64,000 nt of DNA, taken from assembly GCA_047601445.1 (NCBI GenBank), contig JASGJH010000001.1:64001-128000 (forward strand), read 5' to 3'. The notes beneath the pieces were generated by a model. It was not told where the DNA came from and did not search any database. It was given only the letters and a program-made list of their open reading frames with translations. The DNA comes from Myxococcales bacterium (lineage in GTDB: Bacteria; Myxococcota_A; Polyangia; Polyangiales; DASUME01). Of the stretch, positions 7,492 to 21,476 are shown one piece after another. The number at the start of each line of letters is the position of its first letter. Position 1 is the stretch's first letter. Position numbers and translations under genes: made by a program.

Positions 7492-8477
7492 ATGGTTGCA
7501 GATGAATTGATAAGCAATGCCATTGTTCCCGCGCCAGCGAACGCGATCTCCGCCAAGGCCATGTCTCTGCTCATCTGCCTCGCCGGTCCCCGCGCTGAAT
7601 TCGCGTGGGACGAATTTTTTTCCGGCCAGCTCGCCAATCGGCATACCAAAGCTGCCTATCTCTTTGCCGTACGCCGCTTCCTGACTTGGGCAGAGCGGCG
7701 CACTCGGCAGATCAATGACATCACGCCGGGAATGATTGGGATCTATTTTGGCGAGCATCCCGGCAGCCTGCCGACCAAGAAGCTGCATTTGGCAGCCCTC
7801 CGAGCTTTTTTCGACCTACTTGTGAATCGGCACGTCATCATCCTGAATCCTGCAGCCACGGTTCGCACGGGAAAGCACCAGGCGGTCGAAGGTAAGACGC
7901 CGGCAATATCGCCTGATCAAGCACGGGCCTTACTTCAATCGATTAGTGGTCCCTCTCCCACCGCACGCCGCGACCGAGCCATTCTTTCGACGCTCATTTA
8001 TACGGCCGCGCGTGACGGGGCCGTCGCGGCACTACGCATCAAAGACCTCAAATGGGATGGCACGCAGTACAAGTTGCGGTTCCTCGAAAAAGGCGGCAAG
8101 GAGCGGTTGATTCCAGTCCGTTACAATCTTCAACTCGACTTGCTGCAATATTTGGAGTGTTTTGTTTGGCAGGACGAACCGAGCGATGCACCGCTCTTTC
8201 GATCCGTGGCCGGCCGCACCGGTCAACTCACGAAGCGCCCATTCGGAATGTGGATATTTGCCGAATGATGAAACGGCGGCTACGCGAAGCCAAGCTGCCT
8301 ATGGACCTGTCGCCCCACTCTTTCCGCGCCGCGACCGTCACGGATTTGTTGTCGCAAGGCGTGCCGCTGGAAGATGTTCAATACCTTGCCGGGCACAGCG
8401 ATCCAAGAACAACACGGCTCTATGACCGTCGGCAACAACAGGTCACGCGGAATACGGTGGATAGGATTTCGATCTAG
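7492..8477 (+). CDS. Tyrosine recombinase/resolvase, XerD-like (frameshift near 8240)
   Basis: RDRAILSTLIYTAAR, EKGGK, SPHSFRA, QYLAGHSDPRTTRLY. Confidence 0.9.
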
Positions 8478-8809
8478 CTGGTCGGCGCACCCCGTGCGTC
8501 CGACAAACGGTCGTTTTTCGGATGCATTGCCTGCCAGGATCGTATTTGAACCGTAACCGTCCAGAAATTGCGTCCAGAATCAGCCACTGTCCAGAAACAA
8601 TTGAAGACAGTTTTTGGATGCTAAATCGCACGGCTGGCAAGAAATCGCCGTCGATACAATTATTCTACCGCAGCGACTTGCCCCGAAGAATCAAGTTACT
8701 GACGCACCTTGTTCGGTCGGCCACGTCCTGCAATAGCCAGCTAAGCTTGCCTTGAGTCTCTCGATTAATCGATCCGAATACGATTACGCAGTGAAATGCC
8801 CAGCACATC

Positions 8810-8842
8810 AAAAAAAAGAGCCGTCCTCTTACGATGACGGCT
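8810..8842 (-). terminator. Rho-independent terminator of the tracrRNA
   Basis: 7-bp stem AGCCGTC/GACGGCT followed by C and 8 T on the minus strand. Confidence 0.8.
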
Positions 8843-8919
8843 GGTTGCTCCGTAGAGCAGTGCCTGCGAATGTTTCTTCTTGTTGCGAAAAGAATTCGCG
8901 GGCTGAGATTGGTTACACT
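8810..8919 (-). ncRNA. tracrRNA (5' end uncertain, may extend to ~9064)
   Basis: Minus strand reads anti-repeat AGTGTAACCAATCTCAGCCCGCGA-ATTCTTTT-CGCAAC (8919-8882), then AAG, hairpin TGCTC/GAGCA, hairpin AGCCGTC/GACGGCT and a U8 tail. Confidence 0.88.
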
Positions 8920-8994
8920 GCTCGTGATTCTACATGAATCGCGAGCAGATGCAACCAAATACATAAAACACAAAAGGATCCGGAGGCTGAGGGT

Positions 8995-9030
8995 AGTGCA
9001 ACCAATCCCAGCCTGCGACCAGTCCGCAAT
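8995..9030 (-). repeat. Orphan degenerate CRISPR repeat upstream of cas9
   Basis: AGTGCAACCAATCCCAGCCTGCGACCAGTCCGCAAT matches the array repeat at 30/36 positions without gaps. Confidence 0.9.
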
Positions 9031-9371
9031 TTCCGGATTACGGACGATTAACTCGTCTCGCAACTAAGAAATTATGTGTACCGGATTACGACTACTGTAC
9101 ATTGACTTGACACATCGTACAATGGGCCCTGAAGTTGGGGGACATGAAAGCGGCGTCGAGATGCATTGCATCAAGTCCGTCAGCAGTTTGACTGGGGTCG
9201 CAACCCAGTCAAACTGTGAGCGTCCATAGCCTGTCGGAACGGACTCCAACACCGTTCAGCCGCACATGTCTCTCCTTTTAAGAGGATAGCATGCTGGTTT
9301 CAGTTCAGGTATCTCGCGACTCATGCGATCAAGGAGCGCAGCGTCGGCCAAATTAATGTGACGAGGAAATC

Positions 9372-12300
9372 ATGGGCGATTTTGTTTTGGGTCTCGACAT
9401 AGGCTCGAACTCGATTGGCGGCGCACTCGTTGACGAGTCAAATCAAAAGATTCTCGCGAGCTTCGTTCGCATCTTTCCCGAAGGCGTTGATCGCGATCAG
9501 ACGGGTGGTGAAGTTTCAAAGAGTGTGGCCCGCAGAATTGCCCGCGGGATGCGACGCCAGATTGCTCGTCGAGCCAAACGAAAAAAACTGCTACGAACAG
9601 CACTAGCAAAGGCGGAGTTGCTTCCGGCTGATCCTGCAGAGCAACGAAATCTTGATCAACTCAACCCATACGAGTTGCGGCAGAAAGGATTGACCTCGAA
9701 GCTCACGCCGTATGAATTCGGGCGAGTGCTCGTGCATCTCAACCAGCGACGCGGTTTTTTGTCGAACCGCAAAGCTGACCGGGGTAACAAGAAAGAAGCC
9801 TCGGTAATGCTTCAAGCCATCAGCGATTTAGAGGCAGAGATCAAGACAGCAGGGCATGAAACACTTGGCGAGCATTTGGCGGCGTTATACCTAGCCGCCC
9901 CGACCGAGCGAATTCGTGGCAAGCATACTCGCCGCGAAATGCTGCTGGCCGAATTCGAGGCATTGTGGAAAGAGCAGAGCAAGCATCACCCAAAGCTGCT
10001 TACGAACCAATTGAAGTTCGGCAGTCGCGGGCAAGCCAGCTATCCTCGCCCGCATGAACGAGTTGGCGGCGCTGATCAATGGCTCGCTGATTTTGGACTG
10101 TTCGGCATCATCTTCTTTCAGCGGCCGATGTATTGGCCAAAATCGGTGATCGGACAGTGTGAATTGAACCCGAAGATGAAGCGCTGCCCGCGGGCAGATC
10201 GCGCAGCGCAGCGATTTCGTGTTTTGAATGAAGTAAACAATTTACGAATCATTGCGTGCGACGGAGAAATTAAAGAGCTAACGTCGCAGCAGCGAGAGAA
10301 GTTGCTCAAATTGTTGAGCCAAAAGGAATCCGTAACATTCGATGACATCCGCAAGAAATTAGGGCTGCTCGAAAACGACGGTTTCAATCTGGAGGAAGGT
10401 CAGCGACGAAAATTGCTAGGAATGCCAACCGACGCAACACTGGCCAGCAAGCGATTTTTTGGCCCGAAATGGCATGAACAGCCTGACGAATGGAAGGATC
10501 ACGTCGTTCGTTCACTCATTCATGACGACGAAGCCAAATTTCTAAAAAGCTGCCAGTGAAGAGTTCGAGATCGACTCTGAAGTGGCGGAAAAACTGCTCG
10601 ATGCCTCGTTGCCTGAAGGCTATGCCAGCTACGGACGCGAAACGATTGAACGCCTCTTACCACACATAGAAAAGGGACTTCCCTTGATGTCTCGCGACGG
10701 CCAGCCGTGCGCGATCCGGTTGGCTAACTTTGTTCCCGTGTTCGAACGAATGGTGAAGAAGGGGCAGTTTTTGCCGCAACCGCCTGAAATTACCAATCCG
10801 CTCGTTCGACAAGCACTGTTTGAAGTCAGGAAACTGATTAACACGGTCCTTCGCGAGTATGGGAAGCCACGTGCAGTTCATATCGAGTTAGCCCGCGAGG
10901 TGAAAGGCTCAGGAGAGCAGCGAGTTGCCCGCACGCGAGATATGCGCGATCGAGAGAGGAAACGAGAAGAGGCCGCAAAGCGGATTGTAGAACATGGCGA
11001 GAAGCCTACGCGGGGAAAGATCGAGCTTTATCTTCTATGGCAAGAGCAGGGCGAAGATTGCATGTATTCAGGGAGGAAGATTGGGATTCGACAACTCTTC
11101 GGCGGCGAAGTGAACATTGACCACATCTTGCCCTATTCCAAGAGTCTTGACGATTCGCTCATGAACAAAGTCGTTTGTTTTCGCAAAGAAAACGATGACA
11201 AAGGCCAACAGACGGTTCATGAGTGGCTGGCCTCTACGAATCCCCAAAAATACGAGCAGATTCTCCAGCGGGCAGCGAAGCTACCAATCGATATTCGAAA
11301 TCGAAGTGCGCAAAAGCTGGCGCAGAAGACTTGTGAGCTCGAACAGTTTATCAGTCGACAATTGACTGACACGGCCTACATCACGGCTGCTGTTGTCGAA
11401 TATCTCAAAGTGCTCGATTTGGATGTTCTCGGATCGAAAGGGCAGTTGACCGCTGAACTGCGTCACCAATGGGGCTTAAACGACGTGCTTCGTGATGATG
11501 GCTTGAATGTCAAAAATCGTGAAGATCATCGACATCATGCCGTGGATGCCATCGTGATTGCCCTAACCGACCGCAAACGGTTGCAACGACTTGCAAAATG
11601 TAGAGGCAATGATGAGTTGACGCCCCCTGATACCGGAAAGTGGAAGTCGTTCCGTGCGGATGTCGAAGCCGCAATCAACGGAATCAAGGTATCTCATCGA
11701 GTGCAAAGAAAGGTTTCCGGCGCATTGCATGAGGAAACAATCTATGGACCAACGCCGAATGTGGGTGAATTTGTCTGTCGTAAGCCGCTGCTTTCGCTAA
11801 CAGGGCCGATGATTGCTGATATTCGCGATCCCGAAGTGAAACGAATTGTGATCGAGCGATTGGTGAAGTGTGGCATTGATCACGAGGCTGTCTCGAAGAT
11901 TCCCAAAGAAGTTTGGAATGAGCCGCTATATATGACTCGTAAGCTTGGCCGCATCGCTTCGGCACCAGCAGTCATTCAGAAGGTGCGATTGGTTCGTAAA
12001 GATGAGACGATTCGGCGGCTTCGCGGTGAGGGACAGTTTATTAAGCCTGGCAGCAATCACCATGTTTGTATCTTTGAAATGACAGACGAAAAAGGAAAGG
12101 TGCGACGGGAATCCGTTTGGGTCTCCATGCTGGAAGCAGTGCGACGCATCAAAAGCGGCGACGAAATCATCCAGCGAGTTCATCCATCGCGGCCCGAGGC
12201 GAGGTTCGTCATGTCGATCAGCCGGGGCGAAATGTTCCTAGGCACTTTCAAGGGTCAAGAAAGATTGGTTTGGTTCAGAACGGGAGCTTCAACTCAAGGG

Positions 12301-12435
12301 CAGCTATATTTTGTCGATCATACCGACGCAAGGCCGGACAAAACTGCCACGAAATTCGTTGCCACAGCAAACTCATTGAAAGCTCGCAAAGTAACCGTTG
12401 ATCCGTTAGGCCGTATCCGTTGGGCTAATGATTAA
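9372..12435 (+). CDS. cas9: Type II-C Cas9, ~1020 aa (one frameshift in the A-run at 10544-10548)
   Basis: RuvC-I VLGLDIGSNSIG, Arg-rich bridge helix, HLNQRRGF, RuvC-II IELARE, HNH NIDHILPYSKSLDDSLMNKV, RuvC-III HHAVDAIVIA; removing one A joins the two frames. Confidence 0.96.
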
Positions 12436-12550
12436 GATTTCTCACGGCAAGACTGGTAATTGCCGTTCGCTCGAATTAGCGTGGCGCGAGTAGGAAATGA
12501 CCTCTCGCGCCACGGATGGTCCTTCGCTCCTTGTTTGCGAGGACCGCCGA

Positions 12551-13516
12551 GTGATTAAACGCACCATCGAGATTTCGCAGCAGCCGGCTCATGTGACGGT
12601 TCAGCATTCGCAATTGGTGCTGAAGCGCGAGGGGAGTATTGTTGGCCAAGCCCCGTGCGAGGATGTGGGGGTGGTGCTGGTCGATCAGCCACAGGTGACC
12701 TATTCGCACGCGGCCCTGGCGGCTTTGGCCGAGTCAGACGCGGTGCTGGTGGTGTGCGGGCGGAATCATTTACCAGTCGCAGTGCTGCTGCCGCTGGCTG
12801 ATCACACGCAGGTGGTGTGGCGGATCAACGAGCAGCTGGCGATCAGCCGCCCTCTGAAGAAGCAACTGTGGCGGCAGCTCATTCAGGCCAAAATTCGGGG
12901 GCAGGCGAGGAATCTAGCCGGGGGAAGTCCTGCGCGATCGAAGCTGCTCGATTATGCTCGGCAGGTCCGCTCCGGCGATCCAACTAACCTGGAGGCGCAA
13001 GCGGCCCGCGTCTATTGGCAGAACTGGCTGCCGGAAGAAGTGTTTCGCCGCGATGCGGATGCCAGTGGTCTGAACGCTCTTTTGAACTATGGCTATGCGG
13101 TGATGCGGGCGGCTGTGGCGAGGGCCTTGGTCGCTGCGGGATTGATGCCATCGGTAGGTTTGCATCACAGCAACCGGAGCAATGCGTTTTGTTTGGCCGA
13201 CGATGTGCTAGAGCCGTTACGGCCGCTAGTCGATGACCGGGCGCGGGAGCTTTATCGCCAAGGCTACGATCAGCTCGATGTCGAGGCGAAGGCGGGGCTA
13301 CTCAAGCTACTGGCCGAAGACGTGCGACTGCGTCGGGCGGACAGCACGACGGAAACGGGGCCGCTAATGGTGGTGCTGCACCGCTATATCGCCTCGCTCG
13401 TGCACTGCTTTCAAGGCGAGACGAAACGCCTAGAGATACCGGAGATGGTCGATTCCCCGGAGATCGACCATCAGCCGCAAGAGGCAACGCCCGAATCTCT
13501 AGTCCCCAGCCCCTGA
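12551..13516 (+). CDS. cas1: Type II CRISPR-associated Cas1
   Basis: EAQAARVYW, NALLNYGYAVMR, GLHHSNRSNAFCLADDVLEPLRP; GTG start at KRTIEIS inferred. Confidence 0.95.
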   Translation: MIKRTIEISQQPAHVTVQHSQLVLKREGSIVGQAPCEDVGVVLVDQPQVTYSHAALAALAESDAVLVVCGRNHLPVAVLLPLADHTQVVWRINEQLAISRPLKKQLWRQLIQAKIRGQARNLAGGSPARSKLLDYARQVRSGDPTNLEAQAARVYWQNWLPEEVFRRDADASGLNALLNYGYAVMRAAVARALVAAGLMPSVGLHHSNRSNAFCLADDVLEPLRPLVDDRARELYRQGYDQLDVEAKAGLLKLLAEDVRLRRADSTTETGPLMVVLHRYIASLVHCFQGETKRLEIPEMVDSPEIDHQPQEATPESLVPSP

Positions 13517-13528
13517 CCCCAGCTCATC

Positions 13529-13857
13529 GTGCTTATAAGCGGATACCGTTGCATGTGGGTTCTGGCCATGTTCGACCTACCGGTTGATACGAAGAAGTGC
13601 GCAAAGCATACGCCCAGTTCCGCAAAGGACTGCTCAAGGACGGCTTTACGAAGATGCAGTTTTCGGTCTATGTTCGCCATTGCCCGAGCGAGGAGAACGC
13701 TACGGTACATATGGCTCGCGTGGAAAAAATGGTGCCTCCCGATGGCGAAGTTCGGATCATTACCCTTACCGACAAACAGTTCGAGCGGATGCGCATCTTT
13801 TGGGGAAAAATGCGCAAGGCAGTCGCCACACCGCCGCCGCAGCTTGAACTTTTTTAG
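13529..13857 (+). CDS. cas2: Cas2 (frameshift near 13597)
   Basis: MWVLAMFDLPV followed by FRKGLLKDGFTKMQFSVYVR...ITLTDKQF...QLELF. Confidence 0.93.
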
Positions 13858-13907
13858 CCACGGCGCGATCGTAAGTTGTTGCCAATCAGTCGGTTGGGAG
13901 AGGATCG

Positions 13908-16900
13908 AGTGTAACCAACCTCAGCCCGCGACCAATCCGCAACCGCAGCACGACGCTGTGCGCTGTCGATAAGAGTGTAACCAACCTCAGCCCGCGACCA
14001 ATCCGCAACCGGCTGCCGCGATCTTGATCTAGCAACGGAAGTGTAACCAACCTCAGCCCGCGACCAATCCGCAACGCAATGTGGCAAGACGGCGAACGGT
14101 TGCGAAGTGTAACCAACCTCAGCCCGCGACCAATCCGCAACACAGCGAACGCTCGTTCGCCTGCCGGCAGCAGTGTAACCAACCTCAGCCCGCGACCAAT
14201 CCGCAACCCGGGAACCGGTTTCAACATCCGAGGCTAAAGTGTAACCAACCTCAGCCCGCCGACCAATCCGCAACAGGCAGATGATGACAGCCAGACGCGA
14301 GGCAAGTGTAACCAACCTCAGCCCGCGACCAATCCGCAACTTCACAAGAATGGCGAACTGCATACTTCTCAGTGTAACCAACCTCAGCCCGCGACCAATC
14401 CGCAACTGTCTGTGACTTCTACAGAACAATTGGTGAAGTGTAACCAACCTCAGCCCGCGACCAATCCGCAACCCTTAGATTGCTCTTCGGAATTCTCTTG
14501 GGAGTGTAACCAACCTCAGCCCGCGACCAATCCGCAACTACAACGAAAACTGCACCATGAAGGGCCGGAGTGTAACCAACCTCAGCCCGCGACCAATCCG
14601 CAACACCGAACAGGCGTGGCGATTTAACGCCCGTAGTGTAACCAACCTCAGCCCGCGACCAATCCGCAACGAGTCTCGCAATTGGGAGCTTATCTCCCTG
14701 AGTGTAACCAACCTCAGCCCGCGACCAATCCGCAACTTACCCAACCGGCTGGCCATCGCACGGCTCAGTGTAACCAACCTCAGCCCGCGACCAATCCGCA
14801 ACTCTCCATCCATGCCAGTGCTCCATTAGGTGAGTGTAACCAACCTCAGCCCCGACCAATCCGCAACGTTTCGATTGATTTAACGAATCCGCTCATGAGT
14901 GTAACCAACCTCAGCCCGCGACCAATCCGCAACAGACGTTGACGCGAGCTTGATCGAAGCCGTAGTGTAACCAACCTCAGCCCGCGACCAATCCGCAACC
15001 TAGCAACAGCGCCATATCCTAATCAAGCCAGTGTAACCAACCTCAGCCCGCGACCAATCCGCAACTTCGTCATCTGACAGCATCAATCGACGGACAGTGT
15101 AACCAACCTCAGCCCGCGACCAATCCGCAACGCACAGTGCGCAGAATGTCTTCGTTCTGTCAGTGTAACCAACCTCAGCCCGCGACCAATCCGCAACTAA
15201 GCCATACCGTCCGAGGTCTTCGTAGCTAGTGTAACCAACCTCAGCCCGCGACCAATCCGCAACAAGGGTTGGTGTACTTATTCCAATCTGTTGTAGTGTA
15301 ACCAACCTCAGCCCGCGACCAATCCGCAACATTAGCAGGTTAGGTAAACCCTAGTAGCTAAGTGTAACCAACCTCAGCCCGCGACCAATCCGCAACGTGC
15401 TGGGTCTCTCCGATCTTTTGAAAAATAGTGTAACCAACCTCAGCCCGCGACCAATCCGCAACGCTCAACGTCACATGGACGCGAGAGACGCCAGTGTAAC
15501 CAACCTCAGCCCGCGACCAATCCGCAACGGTTGTGGTTCCGAATGAGACAGAAGAACTAGTGTAACCAACCTCAGCCCGCGACCAATCCGCAACTCAGGG
15601 TTGGCGATGGAAGAAGGCACAAGGAGTGTAACCAACCTCAGCCCGCGACCAATCCGCAACGCTGGACGAGTGGGTTGCTTTTACATTTTCAGTGTAACCA
15701 ACCTCAGCCCGCGACCAATCCGCAACAGCCTATGAATCTGTAAAAGCCGTTATGTAAGTGTAACCAACCTCAGCCCGCGACCAATCCGCAACTTAGCTTC
15801 GCTGGTTTCAATTAGCTGCTCGAGTGTAACCAACCTCAGCCCGCGACCAATCCGCAACGGCAGCTAACATCTCAACCGCCTCGATCGAAGTGTAACCAAC
15901 CTCAGCCCGCGACCAATCCGCAACGCTGCAACATGTTTTTCCTCAACGTGGTGCAGTGTAACCAACCTCAGCCCGCGACCAATCCGCAACGGCGAGCGGC
16001 AAATGCCGAACGAGCTTCGCAGTGTAACCAACCTCAGCCCGCGACCAATCCGCAACTGGGCCGCCGGCCGATTGCCAGGCTACGAAAGTGTAACCAACCT
16101 CAGCCCGCGACCAATCCGCAACTCGGGTGAAGTCGGTCGCATGAATCCGGTCAGTGTAACCAACCTCAGCCCGCGACCAATCCGCAACCGGCATTGCGTG
16201 CGCGAGACGGTGCGAAACAGTGTAACCAACCTCAGCCCGCGACCAATCCGCAACTGTAATGGCGTCGTACAAAGTTCCTGCTCAAGTGTAACCAACCTCA
16301 GCCCGCGACCAATCCGCAACTGCGAAGATTGCCAGTGCTGACCTGAAAAAGTGTAACCAACCTCAGCCCGCGACCAATCCGCAACGTGGCTGCCGGCTCT
16401 GGCGTCTGCGATTCGAGTGTAACCAACCTCAGCCCGCGACCAATCCGCAACTATACGGTCAAAAACAAGGGCGCAGGCCTAAAGTGTAACCAACCTCAGC
16501 CCGCGACCAATCCGCAACTTGTGCTGGCCGCGGCGCTTTGTCGTCCTAGAGTGTAACCAACCTCAGCCCGCGACCAATCCGCAACCGTGGATAGCGAACT
16601 TTGGCCAGCAGCCTCAGTGTAACCAACCTCAGCCCGCGACCAATCCGCAACATCACTGTGGAGTCTATTGGACCGGTCCTGAGTGTAACCAACCTCAGCC
16701 CGCGACCAATCCGCAACTGTTTCGTGACGCTGCGGATCCCGGTTGCCAGTGTAACCAACCTCAGCCCGCGACCAATCCGCAACAACGTGTCAAAGCTCAT
16801 CGCGCGATCTCGAAGTGTAACCAACCTCAGCCCGCGACCAATCCGCAACTGGGTCTTAGCGATGCCAGCAAACAACTGAAGTGTAACCAACCTCAGCCCG

Positions 16901-19900
16901 CGACCAATCCGCAACTATAGTGATACACATGACGCACCGAGTTGGAGTGTAACCAACCTCAGCCCGCGACCAATCCGCAACGGGCGCTGTGGGCGCGATA
17001 CTGCTAGCGCCAGTGTAACCAACCTCAGCCCGCGACCAATCCGCAACTGTTGAGTTGAAGGGTAATTATGTCAGTCAAGTGTAACCAACCTCAGCCCGCG
17101 ACCAATCCGCAACTTCCCAGGACAATCCACCAAAGGTTAATCCAGTGTAACCAACCTCAGCCCGCGACCAATCCGCAACAGTTTCTACAGGATCAGAAGC
17201 AGAGACAACAGTGTAACCAACCTCAGCCCGCGACCAATCCGCAACTTCAGTCGCAGGCTGCTAGTAGCTCTAGGGAGTGTAACCAACCTCAGCCCGCGAC
17301 CAATCCGCAACTCTGGAATTTATAGTAGCCTCCATATTGTAGTGTAACCAACCTCAGCCCGCGACCAATCCGCAACTCTGCGTGAAGCATGGGCGAAAGT
17401 TCGCGAAGTGTAACCAACCTCAGCCCGCGACCAATCCGCAACTCTCTAGGAGGTCGGCAGGATGGCAAAATAGTGTAACCAACCTCAGCCCGCGACCAAT
17501 CCGCAACGGTCAGCAATTTGACCCTTTGCTGATCTTAAGTGTAACCAACCTCAGCCCGCGACCAATCCGCAACAGCGATCTGTCAGGATTGACCGTGATC
17601 GGCAGTGTAACCAACCTCAGCCCGCGACCAATCCGCAACGTCGGAGTTGTGCATACCAACGGCCTCGAAAGTGTAACCAACCTCAGCCCGCGACCAATCC
17701 GCAACCCGCTTCAAAGATGACAGCGAACGGCGCATAGTGTAACCAACCTCAGCCCGCGACCAATCCGCAACGGTGTACGCGGTTGGGGCTTGGTTGGTGG
17801 GAGTGTAACCAACCTCAGCCCGCGACCAATCCGCAACCGTGGCGGTTGACGGCGTTGACGTGACTGAAGTGTAACCAACCTCAGCCCGCGACCAATCCGC
17901 AACACCACCCCCACCGCCGCCTCACCCACGCCAAGTGTAACCAACCTCAGCCCGCGACCAATCCGCAACCGTCTTCCGGCTGGTCGTATTGATCCGAGTA
18001 GTGTAACCAACCTCAGCCCGCGACCAATCCGCAACAGCGCGGTAATGCTAATGAGCGCGGATACAAGTGTAACCAACCTCAGCCCGCGACCAATCCGCAA
18101 CAGCGGTGCGGTTACAGCCAATCTGCGCATGAGTGTAACCAACCTCAGCCCGCGACCAATCCGCAACTGTTACCGAATTGGCGAGAACTTGCCAAACAGT
18201 GTAACCAACCTCAGCCCGCGACCAATCCGCAACTCCATTTACCTGCTACGGACTCTTCCCATAGTGTAACCAACCTCAGCCCGCGACCAATCCGCAACGG
18301 TGAGTATGTCGCCTGCGTTGAGCTCGGCAGTGTAACCAACCTCAGCCCGCGACCAATCCGCAACGCGATCAGTAGGAGGTATTGGGCCAAAGGTAGTGTA
18401 ACCAACCTCAGCCCGCGACCAATCCGCAACCCAAGCGGCTCTTGATAGTGGAGAGACCGTAGTGTAACCAACCTCAGCCCGCGACCAATCCGCAACATGC
18501 ATCTAAAGTTCAAAAACATAAATCAAAGTGTAACCAACCTCAGCCCGCGACCAATCCGCAACAGCGGGATGCGCCACGCCCACGGTCCGCTGAGTGTAAC
18601 CAACCTCAGCCCGCGACCAATCCGCAACGGGTAATAAACCGTCAGACGCAGCGATTAAGTGTAACCAACCTCAGCCCGCGACCAATCCGCAACTGTTGGC
18701 TCAACTACAGGTGCAACGCCTGTAGTGTAACCAACCTCAGCCCGCGACCAATCCGCAACGAGCGGCCATGCCGGCAAACTCGTAGCTCAAGTGTAACCAA
18801 CCTCAGCCCGCGACCAATCCGCAACTACAACTTAACGCATTTCAATTCACAACTCAGTGTAACCAACCTCAGCCCGCGACCAATCCGCAACGCGAAGCCG
18901 GTTGGCCAGTCTAGCTCTATTAGTGTAACCAACCTCAGCCCGCGACCAATCCGCAACTGTCGGCTCCGTAGGGGCAAACCGAGACGGAGTGTAACCAACC
19001 TCAGCCCGCGACCAATCCGCAACGCTGAGGATGCGTATCTGTTTCAGTGCCGAGTGTAACCAACCTCAGCCCGCGACCAATCCGCAACGCAGCATGGTTG
19101 TCGTCAGCGCCGGATAGGAGTGTAACCAACCTCAGCCCGCGACCAATCCGCAACCGCGGCCAAAGCATAGAATGTTTCCTGTGCAGTGTAACCAACCTCA
19201 GCCCGCGACCAATCCGCAACCCCCTCGCGTCCCTTGGCCAACATCGCCTCAGTGTAACCAACCTCAGCCCGCGACCAATCCGCAACTCGCGCGTTGCTGC
19301 TGGACAAGATTTGTTTAGTGTAACCAACCTCAGCCCGCGACCAATCCGCAACTTGTATCATGAACACAATTTGAAGTTTCAAGTGTAACCAACCTCAGCC
19401 CGCGACCAATCCGCAACACCAACACTGACTTAACTACCAAAGGATAAAGTGTAACCAACCTCAGCCCGCGACCAATCCGCAACTCCGGGGTCCAGTTGTG
19501 GTCATGCGCCAGCAGTGTAACCAACCTCAGCCCGCGACCAATCCGCAACGTTCGTTCGTCGTGGCCAATTCGTGGTAGTAGTGTAACCAACCTCAGCCCG
19601 CGACCAATCCGCAACCGATTGAACCTTGCCACTCTTGGGCAAAGCAGTGTAACCAACCTCAGCCCGCGACCAATCCGCAACTGATTGGTCGTCATCAACC
19701 CACATTTTCAAGTGTAACCAACCTCAGCCCGCGACCAATCCGCAACGAGTGATGAGTTGATCCCGTAAGTCGCGAAAGTGTAACCAACCTCAGCCCGCGA
19801 CCAATCCGCAACGCAATTGGACTGGCCCTGCTGTTTCGTTTTAGTGTAACCAACCTCAGCCCGCGACCAATCCGCAACAACGCAGGCTACGTCCTCTACG

Positions 19901-21102
19901 ACACCGGCAGTGTAACCAACCTCAGCCCGCGACCAATCCGCAACCTGAATTAGCTTCAGGAATTAGACAACTAAGTGTAACCAACCTCAGCCCGCGACCA
20001 ATCCGCAACAAACCAGGTACAGGTAAAAAGTATCTGTCAAGTGTAACCAACCTCAGCCCGCGACCAATCCGCAACGTAAAGTAAATAGGGTACAACTCAA
20101 AATCTAGTGTAACCAACCTCAGCCCGCGACCAATCCGCAACGCATGACGCCAGCGATGTCGTGATAGGTCGAGTGTAACCAACCTCAGCCCGCGACCAAT
20201 CCGCAACACCTCTGGGACTGTATCGCCAGAGGGTTTTAGTGTAACCAACCTCAGCCCGCGACCAATCCGCAACTCCATGAGCACAGGCCCCGACTTCGGC
20301 TGTAGTGTAACCAACCTCAGCCCGCGACCAATCCGCAACACCTCTGGGACTGTATCGCCAGAGGGTTTTAGTGTAACCAACCTCAGCCCGCGACCAATCC
20401 GCAACTCCATGAGCACAGGCCCCGACTTCGGCTGTAGTGTAACCAACCTCAGCCCGCGACCAATCCGCAACGGCACGGATGCTATGGAACTTCGCTGGTA
20501 CAGTGTAACCAACCTCAGCCCGCGACCAATCCGCAACATGGAGCCGTATTTGAAACGCGGCAAATTGAGTGTAACCAACCTCAGCCCGCGACCAATCCGC
20601 AACGGCGCGGCTCAAGGCGATGGCATTGGCCGAAGTGTAACCAACCTCAGCCCGCGACCAATCCGCAACAGGATCAATTAGAGCAGCGCACCCGCTCCTA
20701 GTGTAACCAACCTCAGCCCGCGACCAATCCGCAACAATCGAACTGCGGGACCGCATCTATTTGAAAGTGTAACCAACCTCAGCCCGCGACCAATCCGCAA
20801 CCATTAGCTCGCGGTCCAGGGCTTGGTGATGAGTGTAACCAACCTCAGCCCGCGACCAATCCGCAACGGCAGCTAACTAACATGCTTCACCCACGCCAGT
20901 GTAACCAACCTCAGCCCGCGACCAATCCGCAACCCCACGATGCTTTCCCAGCACGTCGCTTGAAGTGTAACCAACCTCAGCCCGCGACCAATCCGCAACA
21001 GCCAACCTGGCTTGATCGCCGCTTAATGCAGTGTAACCAACCTCAGCCCGCGACCAATCCGCAACGTGCATGGGGTGCTAGGCACGACGTATGGTAGTGT
21101 AA
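13908..21102 (-). CRISPR. CRISPR array with ~109 repeats of 36 bp and ~30-bp spacers
   Basis: Repeat AGTGTAACCAACCTCAGCCCGCGACCAATCCGCAAC with ~66-bp period from 13908 to 21065, plus a truncated AGTGTAA at 21096-21102; count estimated from length; crRNA strand inferred from the GTTG start and tracrRNA polarity. Confidence 0.98.
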
Positions 21103-21476
21103 TTGCACTTCGCACTTCCGTTCGACCGGGTGCATTCCAGGCTTCGCGTTAGCTGCGGTCGCTCAAGCCGACGGACTAGCATCCCCTTCCCGCCCCCTGG
21201 TGCTTCCGGCTGCTTGCCGGCAACGGTCACCTGCGGCGACGTGAATTTCTTGGGAGTGCGGGGGGAGCATCCCCCAGGCCGTCAAGGCAACCGCTGCGCT
21301 ACGGCCGGCGCGGTCCCTCCCAATCTTCCGCGGCTAGCGCCTTGTGCAGACCGGTGGCCCCCCACGCCGGCCGTCCTTGACTGCCTGCCCCCTCTGTGTT
21401 TGGGCCTTCGTCCCCCTCGCCCAAAGGAATGTGCGAGGGGCACTTTCCATTTCATTCCAAGAGGAGGAACCAGACC

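Follow-up and report, generated by a model that had tools for sequence, protein, structure and literature searches.

Between the tracrRNA and cas9 of a type II-C CRISPR-Cas locus there is a solitary (orphan) CRISPR repeat adjoined by a guide-like stretch, and repeats of this kind recur at the same position in related loci. The element is real, and its placement across this Cas9 family is non-random. It is best read as a scaRNA-like guide-repeat unit that was captured upstream of the tracrRNA, in a manner resembling the tracr-L of S. pyogenes. Tentatively, and with somewhat less than even confidence, we propose that Cas9 is guided by the unit, or was until recently, to the promoter region of the locus in which the unit lies. 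The stretch of DNA analyzed here, hereafter the window, is 64,000 nucleotides long, and coordinates given with no locus prefix refer to it.

The locus and its orphan repeat

The locus consists of a tracrRNA, cas9, cas1 and a CRISPR array, which are laid out as follows along with the elements found between tracrRNA and cas9.

8810..8919, minus strand: tracrRNA, short form, upstream of and divergent from cas9
8920..8994, minus strand: linker of 75 nt from orphan repeat to anti-repeat
8927..8954, minus strand: likely short-tracrRNA promoter, read by eye; TTGCAT (8954-8949), 16 nt, TAGAAT (8932-8927)
8995..9030, minus strand: orphan CRISPR repeat, oriented as in the crRNA; 30 of 36 positions shared with the array repeat
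9031..9060, minus strand: guide-like stretch adjoining the orphan repeat; 5' boundary putative
9079..9090, minus strand: candidate target, 11/12 match to the guide 3' end
9096..9123, plus strand: promoter-like site facing cas9, tool-called; TGTACA, 16 nt, TACAAT (9118-9123)
9372..12435, plus strand: cas9 (type II-C); Pfam Cas9_a, HNH_4 and RuvC_III
12497..13516, plus strand: cas1; Pfam Cas_Cas1, E 5.9e-25
13529..13972, plus strand: ORF in the cas2 position, so placed by position alone; overlaps the first repeat
13908..21065, crRNA sense on the minus strand: CRISPR array, 109 repeats of 36 nt, 107 of them identical

As assembled, the cas9 frame is broken by one extra base in the A5 run at 10544-10548, which divides the gene into ORFs at 9372-10559 and 10546-12435. 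With A4 in place of A5 the two frames join, and conserved residues and motifs are found across the rest of the gene; the break is either an assembly error or a very recent break or inactivation. A Pfam search of the ORF in the cas2 position gave zero matches. The array spacers are 30 nt in most cases, and two spacer sequences are present twice each. Past the cas-distal array end, at 21066-21110, a decayed repeat remnant (3' TTACACT) is followed by exactly 30 nt and then by the first full repeat, so that this end looks like the old (trailer) end, and spacer entry would be next to cas2. A few hundred bases past the tracrRNA, an ORF at 7492-8268 shows weak phage-integrase matches, its SAM-like N-terminal domain being above the Pfam cut-off and its catalytic domain just below it. 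As the CRISPR locus is also missing from 9/9 same-genus genomes searched, these observations suggest that it lies on a mobile island.

The tracrRNA is recognizable as that of a type II-C system by an anti-repeat complementary to the array repeat, by its position adjacent to cas9, and by conserved 3' hairpins and a terminator. Its parts are the anti-repeat (8919-8882), nexus-like and terminal hairpins, and an eight-T run (8817-8810), with the terminal hairpin and the eight T ending the RNA at approximately 8842-8810. A covariance model, R1, trained on three tracrRNAs (those of the window and of the related loci L001 and L002, in which the tracrRNA is conserved) scores 124.2 bits on 8811-8919. 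A scan of 8000-17000 against Rfam returned no tracrRNA family and only two sub-threshold microRNA matches. The predicted duplex of array repeat and anti-repeat has an energy of -58.3 kcal/mol, the whole repeat being paired save for one internal loop. The earlier note on this DNA had described the 75-nt linker, the anti-repeat, the tracr hairpins and the terminator in the same places, and both the covariance model and the eight-T run bear it out.

The orphan repeat lies on the tracrRNA strand, with the anti-repeat 75 nt downstream of it, and it is far above chance, with a local alignment score of 45 versus a shuffle maximum of 21. Sequence comparison confirms the earlier note's account of it as a 30/36 copy of the array repeat in which all of the changes are transitions; these fall at positions 1, 9, 17, 23, 25 and 32. 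When 31 related array repeats are compared, the orphan's bases at positions 17, 23 and 25 prove to be the usual state, and these three therefore speak neither of decay nor of adaptation of the orphan copy; the changes specific to the orphan are those at positions 1, 9 and 32 only. With regard to pairing, the anti-repeat forms G:U pairs at the sites of A23G and A32G, and an A:U pair at that of G25A. These two wobbles and one improved pair had been claimed before and stand; the account had omitted, however, that G1A and G17A yield A.C mismatches and that T9C falls in the internal loop. G1A costs the first pair of the stem beside the guide, and the first 11 pairs of the stem contain three nonstandard pairs with the orphan repeat versus two with the array repeat. 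The orphan repeat:anti-repeat duplex is nevertheless predicted at -48.8 kcal/mol, so a repeat-like segment able to pair lies upstream of the anti-repeat on the same strand, as in tracr-L. Pairing as good as the orphan's was reached by 5% of 3000 random 6-transition mutants of the array repeat and by 1.8% of 3000 random 6-substitution mutants.

At the 3' end of the repeat, a -10-like hexamer reads TACACT in the array and TGCACT in the orphan copy, a change that the earlier note had also seen. The best-conserved bases of the hexamer are position 32 (A in 30/31 related array repeats) and position 36 (T in 31/31), and the orphan-specific changes within it are A32G in the window and T36C in two other carriers, L034 and L038. 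Judged by sequence, these changes would fit a loss of promoter constraint with pairing kept, and chance alone would be only mildly unlikely to produce them. In general, a conserved -10-like hexamer (TACACT, TACAAT or TACCAT) closes the repeats of this Cas9 family, and a whole promoter was called by the scan tool inside the orphan repeat of a further carrier, L035. Repeat-internal crRNA promoters are known from Neisseria, and by analogy the repeat ends of this family would fit such promoters.

Compared with shuffles, no second repeat segment in the tracrRNA-cas9 gap rises above chance. A patchwork of repeat fragments (GTTGCG at 9064, TTGGTTGCA at 8958 and AATCCGGAA at 9039) was discarded, all of its members being at chance versus shuffles, and the sole piece reaching p ~0.03 in such a comparison is a 20-nt anti-repeat-like segment at 8991-8972. 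The gap also contains, at 9184-9215, a perfect 13-bp inverted repeat with a 6-nt loop and no flanking T run, the arm of which is unique in the genome; a protein might bind there.

Recurrence and candidate targets among related loci

The Cas9 family to which the window belongs is found in Planctomycetota and Omnitrophota genomes and in metagenome contigs. Our comparison set numbered 70 loci counting the window, each with a model-found tracrRNA on the minus strand upstream of cas9 (the weakest of these model matches having E-values of 0.28-0.61). The gap between tracrRNA and cas9 is 32-132 nt in 67/70 loci, none of which holds an orphan repeat there; the long gaps are those of L034 (436 nt), L038 (438 nt) and the window (452 nt). 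Solitary repeat-like segments were flagged in 6/70 loci. The flag in L049 proved to be a second tracrRNA copy and no orphan repeat, and those in L076 and L095 are arrays cut by the contig end; this leaves the window, L034 and L038 as the only three of the 70 with a crRNA-sense orphan repeat, which is always in the tracrRNA-cas9 gap. (The tandem tracrRNA copies of L049 lie upstream of cas9 at L049:1478-1585 and 1616-1712.) A fourth carrier contig, L035, was found by BLAST of the window's gap against all loci. Its orphan repeat is 34/36 identical to its own array repeat and lies 273 nt upstream of cas9; the contig ends 48 nt past this repeat, so that no tracrRNA is seen on it.

The nearest relatives of each carrier lineage are compact: L024, L020 and L002 for the window, L039 (95% identical) and L037 for L038, and L042, L040 and L026 for L035. 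As such, the gains of the insertion in the three lineages look independent. A quick maximum-likelihood tree of 69 rows (a quick search only, from which L032 was dropped as too short and L035 was left out) requires at least two changes to account for the window and L034/L038, and by BLAST there was no homology between the window's insertion and those of L034 and L038 outside the repeat. From the compact relatives, the tree and the lack of shared insertion sequence we conclude that the orphan-repeat layout arose, or was kept, at least three times. The earlier note had named conservation of the orphan repeat in relatives as a point on which its proposal could fail, and the repeat does recur at the same position and orientation in three lineages. 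In two of these lineages the interval from the orphan unit to cas9 includes a tRNA gene with the same orientation as cas9 (L034:2059-2130, L038:6861-6934 and L035:216-298), the genes being tRNA-Ile, with anticodons gat and tat, and tRNA-Arg-like; no tRNA gene was found in the window between 8000 and 10000.

Closer kin of the window's own system were not encountered. None of 60 relatives (0/60) holds the region, a single 45-nt match being cas9 coding sequence, and this Cas9 occurs in 0/400 genomes of the order. The best Cas9 identity is 57% both in the genome collection (5 loci) and in metagenomes (among the best 80 of 466 relatives), and no relative close enough for guide-target covariation was found in the genome collection, the order genomes or those best 80 of 466 metagenomic relatives. 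The insertion itself has no second copy in the genome.

In the window, the guide matches 9090-9079 over 10 contiguous nt, or at 11/12 with a mismatch at seed position 2, exactly as first described. The PAM-side flank of this site is CACATAAT (9078-9071), which overlaps a -10-like CATAAT. When 60,000 12-mers were drawn at random from this genome, an 11/12 match turned up in the 340 nt upstream for 778 of them (1.3%), on the same strand in 590 cases, compared with 0.15% under a uniform expectation. The overlapped hexamer is oriented toward the orphan unit and away from cas9, as is the protospacer-sense strand, and the predicted promoter that does face cas9 begins 6 nt past the match.

The strongest evidence on the question of a target is that of L035. 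There, the guide has its last 12 nt, up to precisely the boundary with the repeat, perfectly matched on the plus strand at 152-163; a tool-called promoter (146-173) directed toward the tRNA gene and cas9 has this site between its two hexamers. A perfect inverted 12-mer within 272 nt is expected by chance in 75/400,000 trials with this genome and in 125/400,000 with the family loci (1.9e-4 to 3.1e-4). With a convincing match of this kind in a cas9-facing promoter, it is plausible that promoter-directed regulation of the type first proposed for the window exists in this Cas9 family. The guides of L034 and L038 show 9/10 matches only, at non-homologous sites and with a chance expectation of ~0.02 each; that of L038 doubles as the closing stem of a predicted RNA hairpin, and no convincing local target was found in L038. 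As for a seed match in relatives, upon which the initial proposal also depended, a perfect one is present in L035, and L034 and L038 have the 9/10 ones only. Between the latter two loci, guide and orphan repeat are conserved, and the sequence just past the repeat has diverged.

The flanks of the four candidate sites all have TA at positions 5-6; since these flanks overlap -10-like hexamers, the shared TA does not establish a PAM. In the window's own genome the spacers, queried as 26-28 nt, have no match longer than 21 nt outside the array. Comparison of the array with phages and with plasmids gave 7 weak records each, none with E <0.2, and comparison with 400 genomes of the order gave two weak matches and no protospacer, the first being mostly repeat sequence inside a coding region and the second 32/37 nt only. 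Three spacers gave 0 matches in IMG/VR, as did the conserved tracrRNA motif. When a PAM was sought by homology, only the HNH and RuvC parts of this Cas9 aligned to solved Cas9 structures; the PAM-interacting part did not. None of these comparisons yielded a PAM.

Transcription, folding and competing readings

Within the linker, 7-8 nt upstream of the start of the anti-repeat, lies the putative short-tracrRNA promoter, the -10 hexamer of which is surrounded by a 7-bp inverted repeat. The scan tool does not call this promoter, its first hexamer matching at 3/6 bases; at the equivalent position there are TTGACA-type promoters in L001 and L002 and a tool-called promoter in L038. Upstream of the guide, the two divergent -10-like hexamers of the earlier note are found where it placed them. 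That on the minus strand, CATAAT (9076-9071), is without a -35 hexamer, and that on the plus strand belongs to the tool-called site facing cas9, which matches at 9/12 bases (shuffles average 0.8 sites per region). On the minus strand from 9125 to 8920, the scan tool called neither a promoter nor a terminator belonging to the unit itself. By eye, there is an 8-bp stem with a 15-nt loop, but a U-rich tract does not begin until 8 nt past it. An alternative guide register, built upon a -10-like TACAGT (9099-9094), 29 nt and GTTGCG at 9064, was set aside as its support ends at that hexamer.

A long RNA starting at 9064 is predicted to fold its orphan repeat onto the anti-repeat, with a minimum free energy of -110.2 kcal/mol and a z-score of -8.9. 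The fold suggested in the earlier note, 9064 to 8810, therefore does form the repeat:anti-repeat stem, but the stem is lost at some other 5' ends: in the ensemble, the orphan repeat pairs with the anti-repeat over 21.5-21.6 of 36 nt for 5' ends at 9064 and 9070, 8.5-11.9 for 9080 and 9110, and 0.4-1.6 for 9060, 9088 and 9094. For the long RNA of L038, 31.9/36 orphan nucleotides are predicted to pair with the anti-repeat at all three starts tried. In the predicted folds of both the window and L038, the guide seed itself is paired.

Taken together, it is reasonable to envision a mechanism in which a scaRNA-like guide-repeat unit (a cr-like RNA) would have come, by insertion, to lie between cas9 and the promoter of the tracrRNA. 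A transcript begun upstream would then be either a long tracrRNA bearing guide and repeat at its 5' end or a separate cr-like RNA, both of which could base-pair to the anti-repeat and be loaded into Cas9. As the complementarity is only ~11 nt, binding to 9079-9090, within the promoter region that separates the unit from cas9, would occur without cleavage, and the bound Cas9 would lower transcription from the unit and, probably, of cas9 as well. The sequences show the architecture, its recurrence among relatives and, in one relative, a convincing target; for this organism we infer transcription of the unit, loading of Cas9, a fitting PAM and repression. The module in the window may be weakened, given the seed mismatch, the lost first stem pair and the cas9 frame break. 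As for the original proposal of a guide-repeat-tracr fusion that autoregulates cas9 and/or itself, its shared strand, the recurrence in three lineages, the target in L035 and the good pairing all speak for it, but the seed mismatch and the dependence of the fold on the 5' end count against it in the window. A broader claim, which we regard as unlikely on balance, is that a guide and full-length repeat were captured upstream of a tracrRNA at least three times (twice with a tRNA gene) and that each such unit self-targets and represses promoters of its own locus; this Cas9 family would then show how tracr-L comes about, and the window's guide would aim at its own promoter, placing guide RNA and Cas9 in one negative feedback loop.

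It is conceivable that the orphan repeat is instead a non-functional, decaying leftover of a spurious duplication or recombination, and that the nearby 10-nt identity arose by chance or duplication. Solitary repeats of type II systems have been judged mostly spurious duplications by Shmakov et al. (2023, PMC10120712), and many features of the window's copy are of the sort that a remnant would display: a seed mismatch and a ~1% chance rate for the match, three orphan-specific changes with the first stem base among them, no promoter called for the unit, a fold that varies with the assumed 5' end, a cas9 that is frame-broken in the assembly, and no second repeat or fragment above chance in the gap. 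A remnant would not, however, be expected to recur in position and orientation in three lineages whose nearest relatives are compact, to pair with the anti-repeat better than 95-98% of random mutants do, to be conserved in L034 and L038 beside diverged sequence, or to be accompanied in L035 by a perfect 12-nt match in a predicted promoter. On this evidence, we consider an inert remnant somewhat unlikely.

The unit may also act at the level of RNA only, through an anti-repeat occupied in cis or a cr-like decoy in trans that titrates tracrRNA or Cas9 and has no DNA target; such titration would tune crRNA loading or spacer acquisition. The strength of the orphan repeat:anti-repeat duplex is in keeping with this possibility, as are the robust stem of the long L038 RNA in a locus lacking a convincing local target and the pairing of the guide seed in the predicted folds of the window and L038; Cas9 sequestration by guide-like RNAs is, moreover, among the routes reported in a recent preprint (bioRxiv 10.64898/2026.06.01.729453). 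A pure decoy would have no need of the L035 match, though, which stops precisely where the repeat begins and is, at 12 nt, as long as non-cleaving guides typically are, and the pairing in the window is not robust in silico, so that we judge a purely RNA-level role improbable.

Last, that the unit is an ordinary extra-array guide, serving as immune memory of a mobile element or regulating a distant gene as the Francisella scaRNA does, would accord with its full-length repeat and spacer-sized 30-nt stretch and with the distant genes upon which known scaRNAs act (PMC10120712, PMC13431127), but is highly improbable, given that matches anchored at the guide 3' end in the 9.5-Mb genome are neither beyond chance nor better than the local one (the exact 12-mer occurs once, as itself, versus 1.1 expected, and looser classes number 2, 4 and 1 versus 3.0, 5.0 and 0.56 expected, the unit itself counted in each), that the last 24 nt of the guide have 0 exact matches in IMG/VR, and that similarity to the 104 array spacers nowhere exceeds 9 nt.

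Returning to the preferred reading, in which the unit directs or recently directed Cas9 to promoters of its own locus, we find the pattern across the family to be more interesting than the window's own copy, and the close carrier/non-carrier pair L038 and L039, together with the perfect match of L035, constitutes ready test material.

Comparison with known systems

The mechanism of Cas9 self-repression by tracr-L has been established in the type II-A system of S. pyogenes; as described in the bioRxiv version of Workman et al. (2021), the promoter matches of tracr-L are 11-15 nt and non-cleaving, and repression fell sharply when any one of the 9 bases at the target's 3' end was mutated. The 12-nt promoter match of L035 fits within this range. 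A preprint of June 2026 (bioRxiv 10.64898/2026.06.01.729453) describes tracr-L in type II-C systems and Cas9-regulating scaRNAs as predicted or reported, and suggests that tracr-L stems from a scaRNA unit inserted upstream of the tracrRNA. The three insertions described here look like such an event. In type II-C Neisseria, scaRNAs have been predicted or studied (PMC6199352, PMC13431127), and according to a 2025 paper (PMC12477760) homologues of tracr-L were not seen in Neisseria small-RNA data.

Like tracr-L, the window's element is a same-strand 5' extension of the tracrRNA comprising a short guide and a repeat-like segment, with the promoter of the short form (putative in the window) inside the extension and a partial match (11-15 nt for tracr-L) within a promoter region; the carriers here also share with it a longer tracrRNA-cas9 gap and a patchy presence across the tree. 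Unlike tracr-L, the window's system is II-C and its repeat is a full-length one of 36 nt, not a short degenerate stem; the guide's match is broken by one mismatch in the seed and falls on the same strand as the putative promoter of the unit itself. Furthermore, tracr-L was demonstrated by experiment, whereas the window's element is known from sequence alone.

With the Cas9-regulating scaRNAs of the preprint, the loci here have in common a guide-plus-repeat unit within the locus and the cas9 promoter as (candidate) target. That work tolerates no more than one bad pair among the 11 bp with which the stem begins, and asks for 11 nt or more of perfect match in the interval from the unit to the cas9 start (bioRxiv 10.64898/2026.06.01.729453); the window falls short on both counts, with three bad pairs (its own array repeat has two) and 10 contiguous nt matched, and L035 has the required perfect match.

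The scaRNAs of Francisella novicida (II-B) and Neisseria meningitidis (II-C) resemble the window's element as Cas9-linked, repeat-like small RNAs outside the array (PMC13431127). Each of them is ended by a terminator of its own, the array is close by, and they target distant genes or mRNA. In contrast, the window has no called terminator after the orphan repeat, and no distant target was found for it in the 9.5-Mb genome. The regulatory mini-arrays of PMC10120712 likewise combine an extra-array repeat-like element with a partial match to a cas-locus promoter; they consist of two repeats flanking one spacer, whereas the window's gap shows a single detectable repeat.

If the unit works as proposed, Cas9 that represses itself by means of a natural guide would be known from an environmental type II-C lineage as well, and the step put forward for the origin of tracr-L, the insertion of a guide-repeat unit upstream of a tracrRNA, would still be recognizable in the loci described here.
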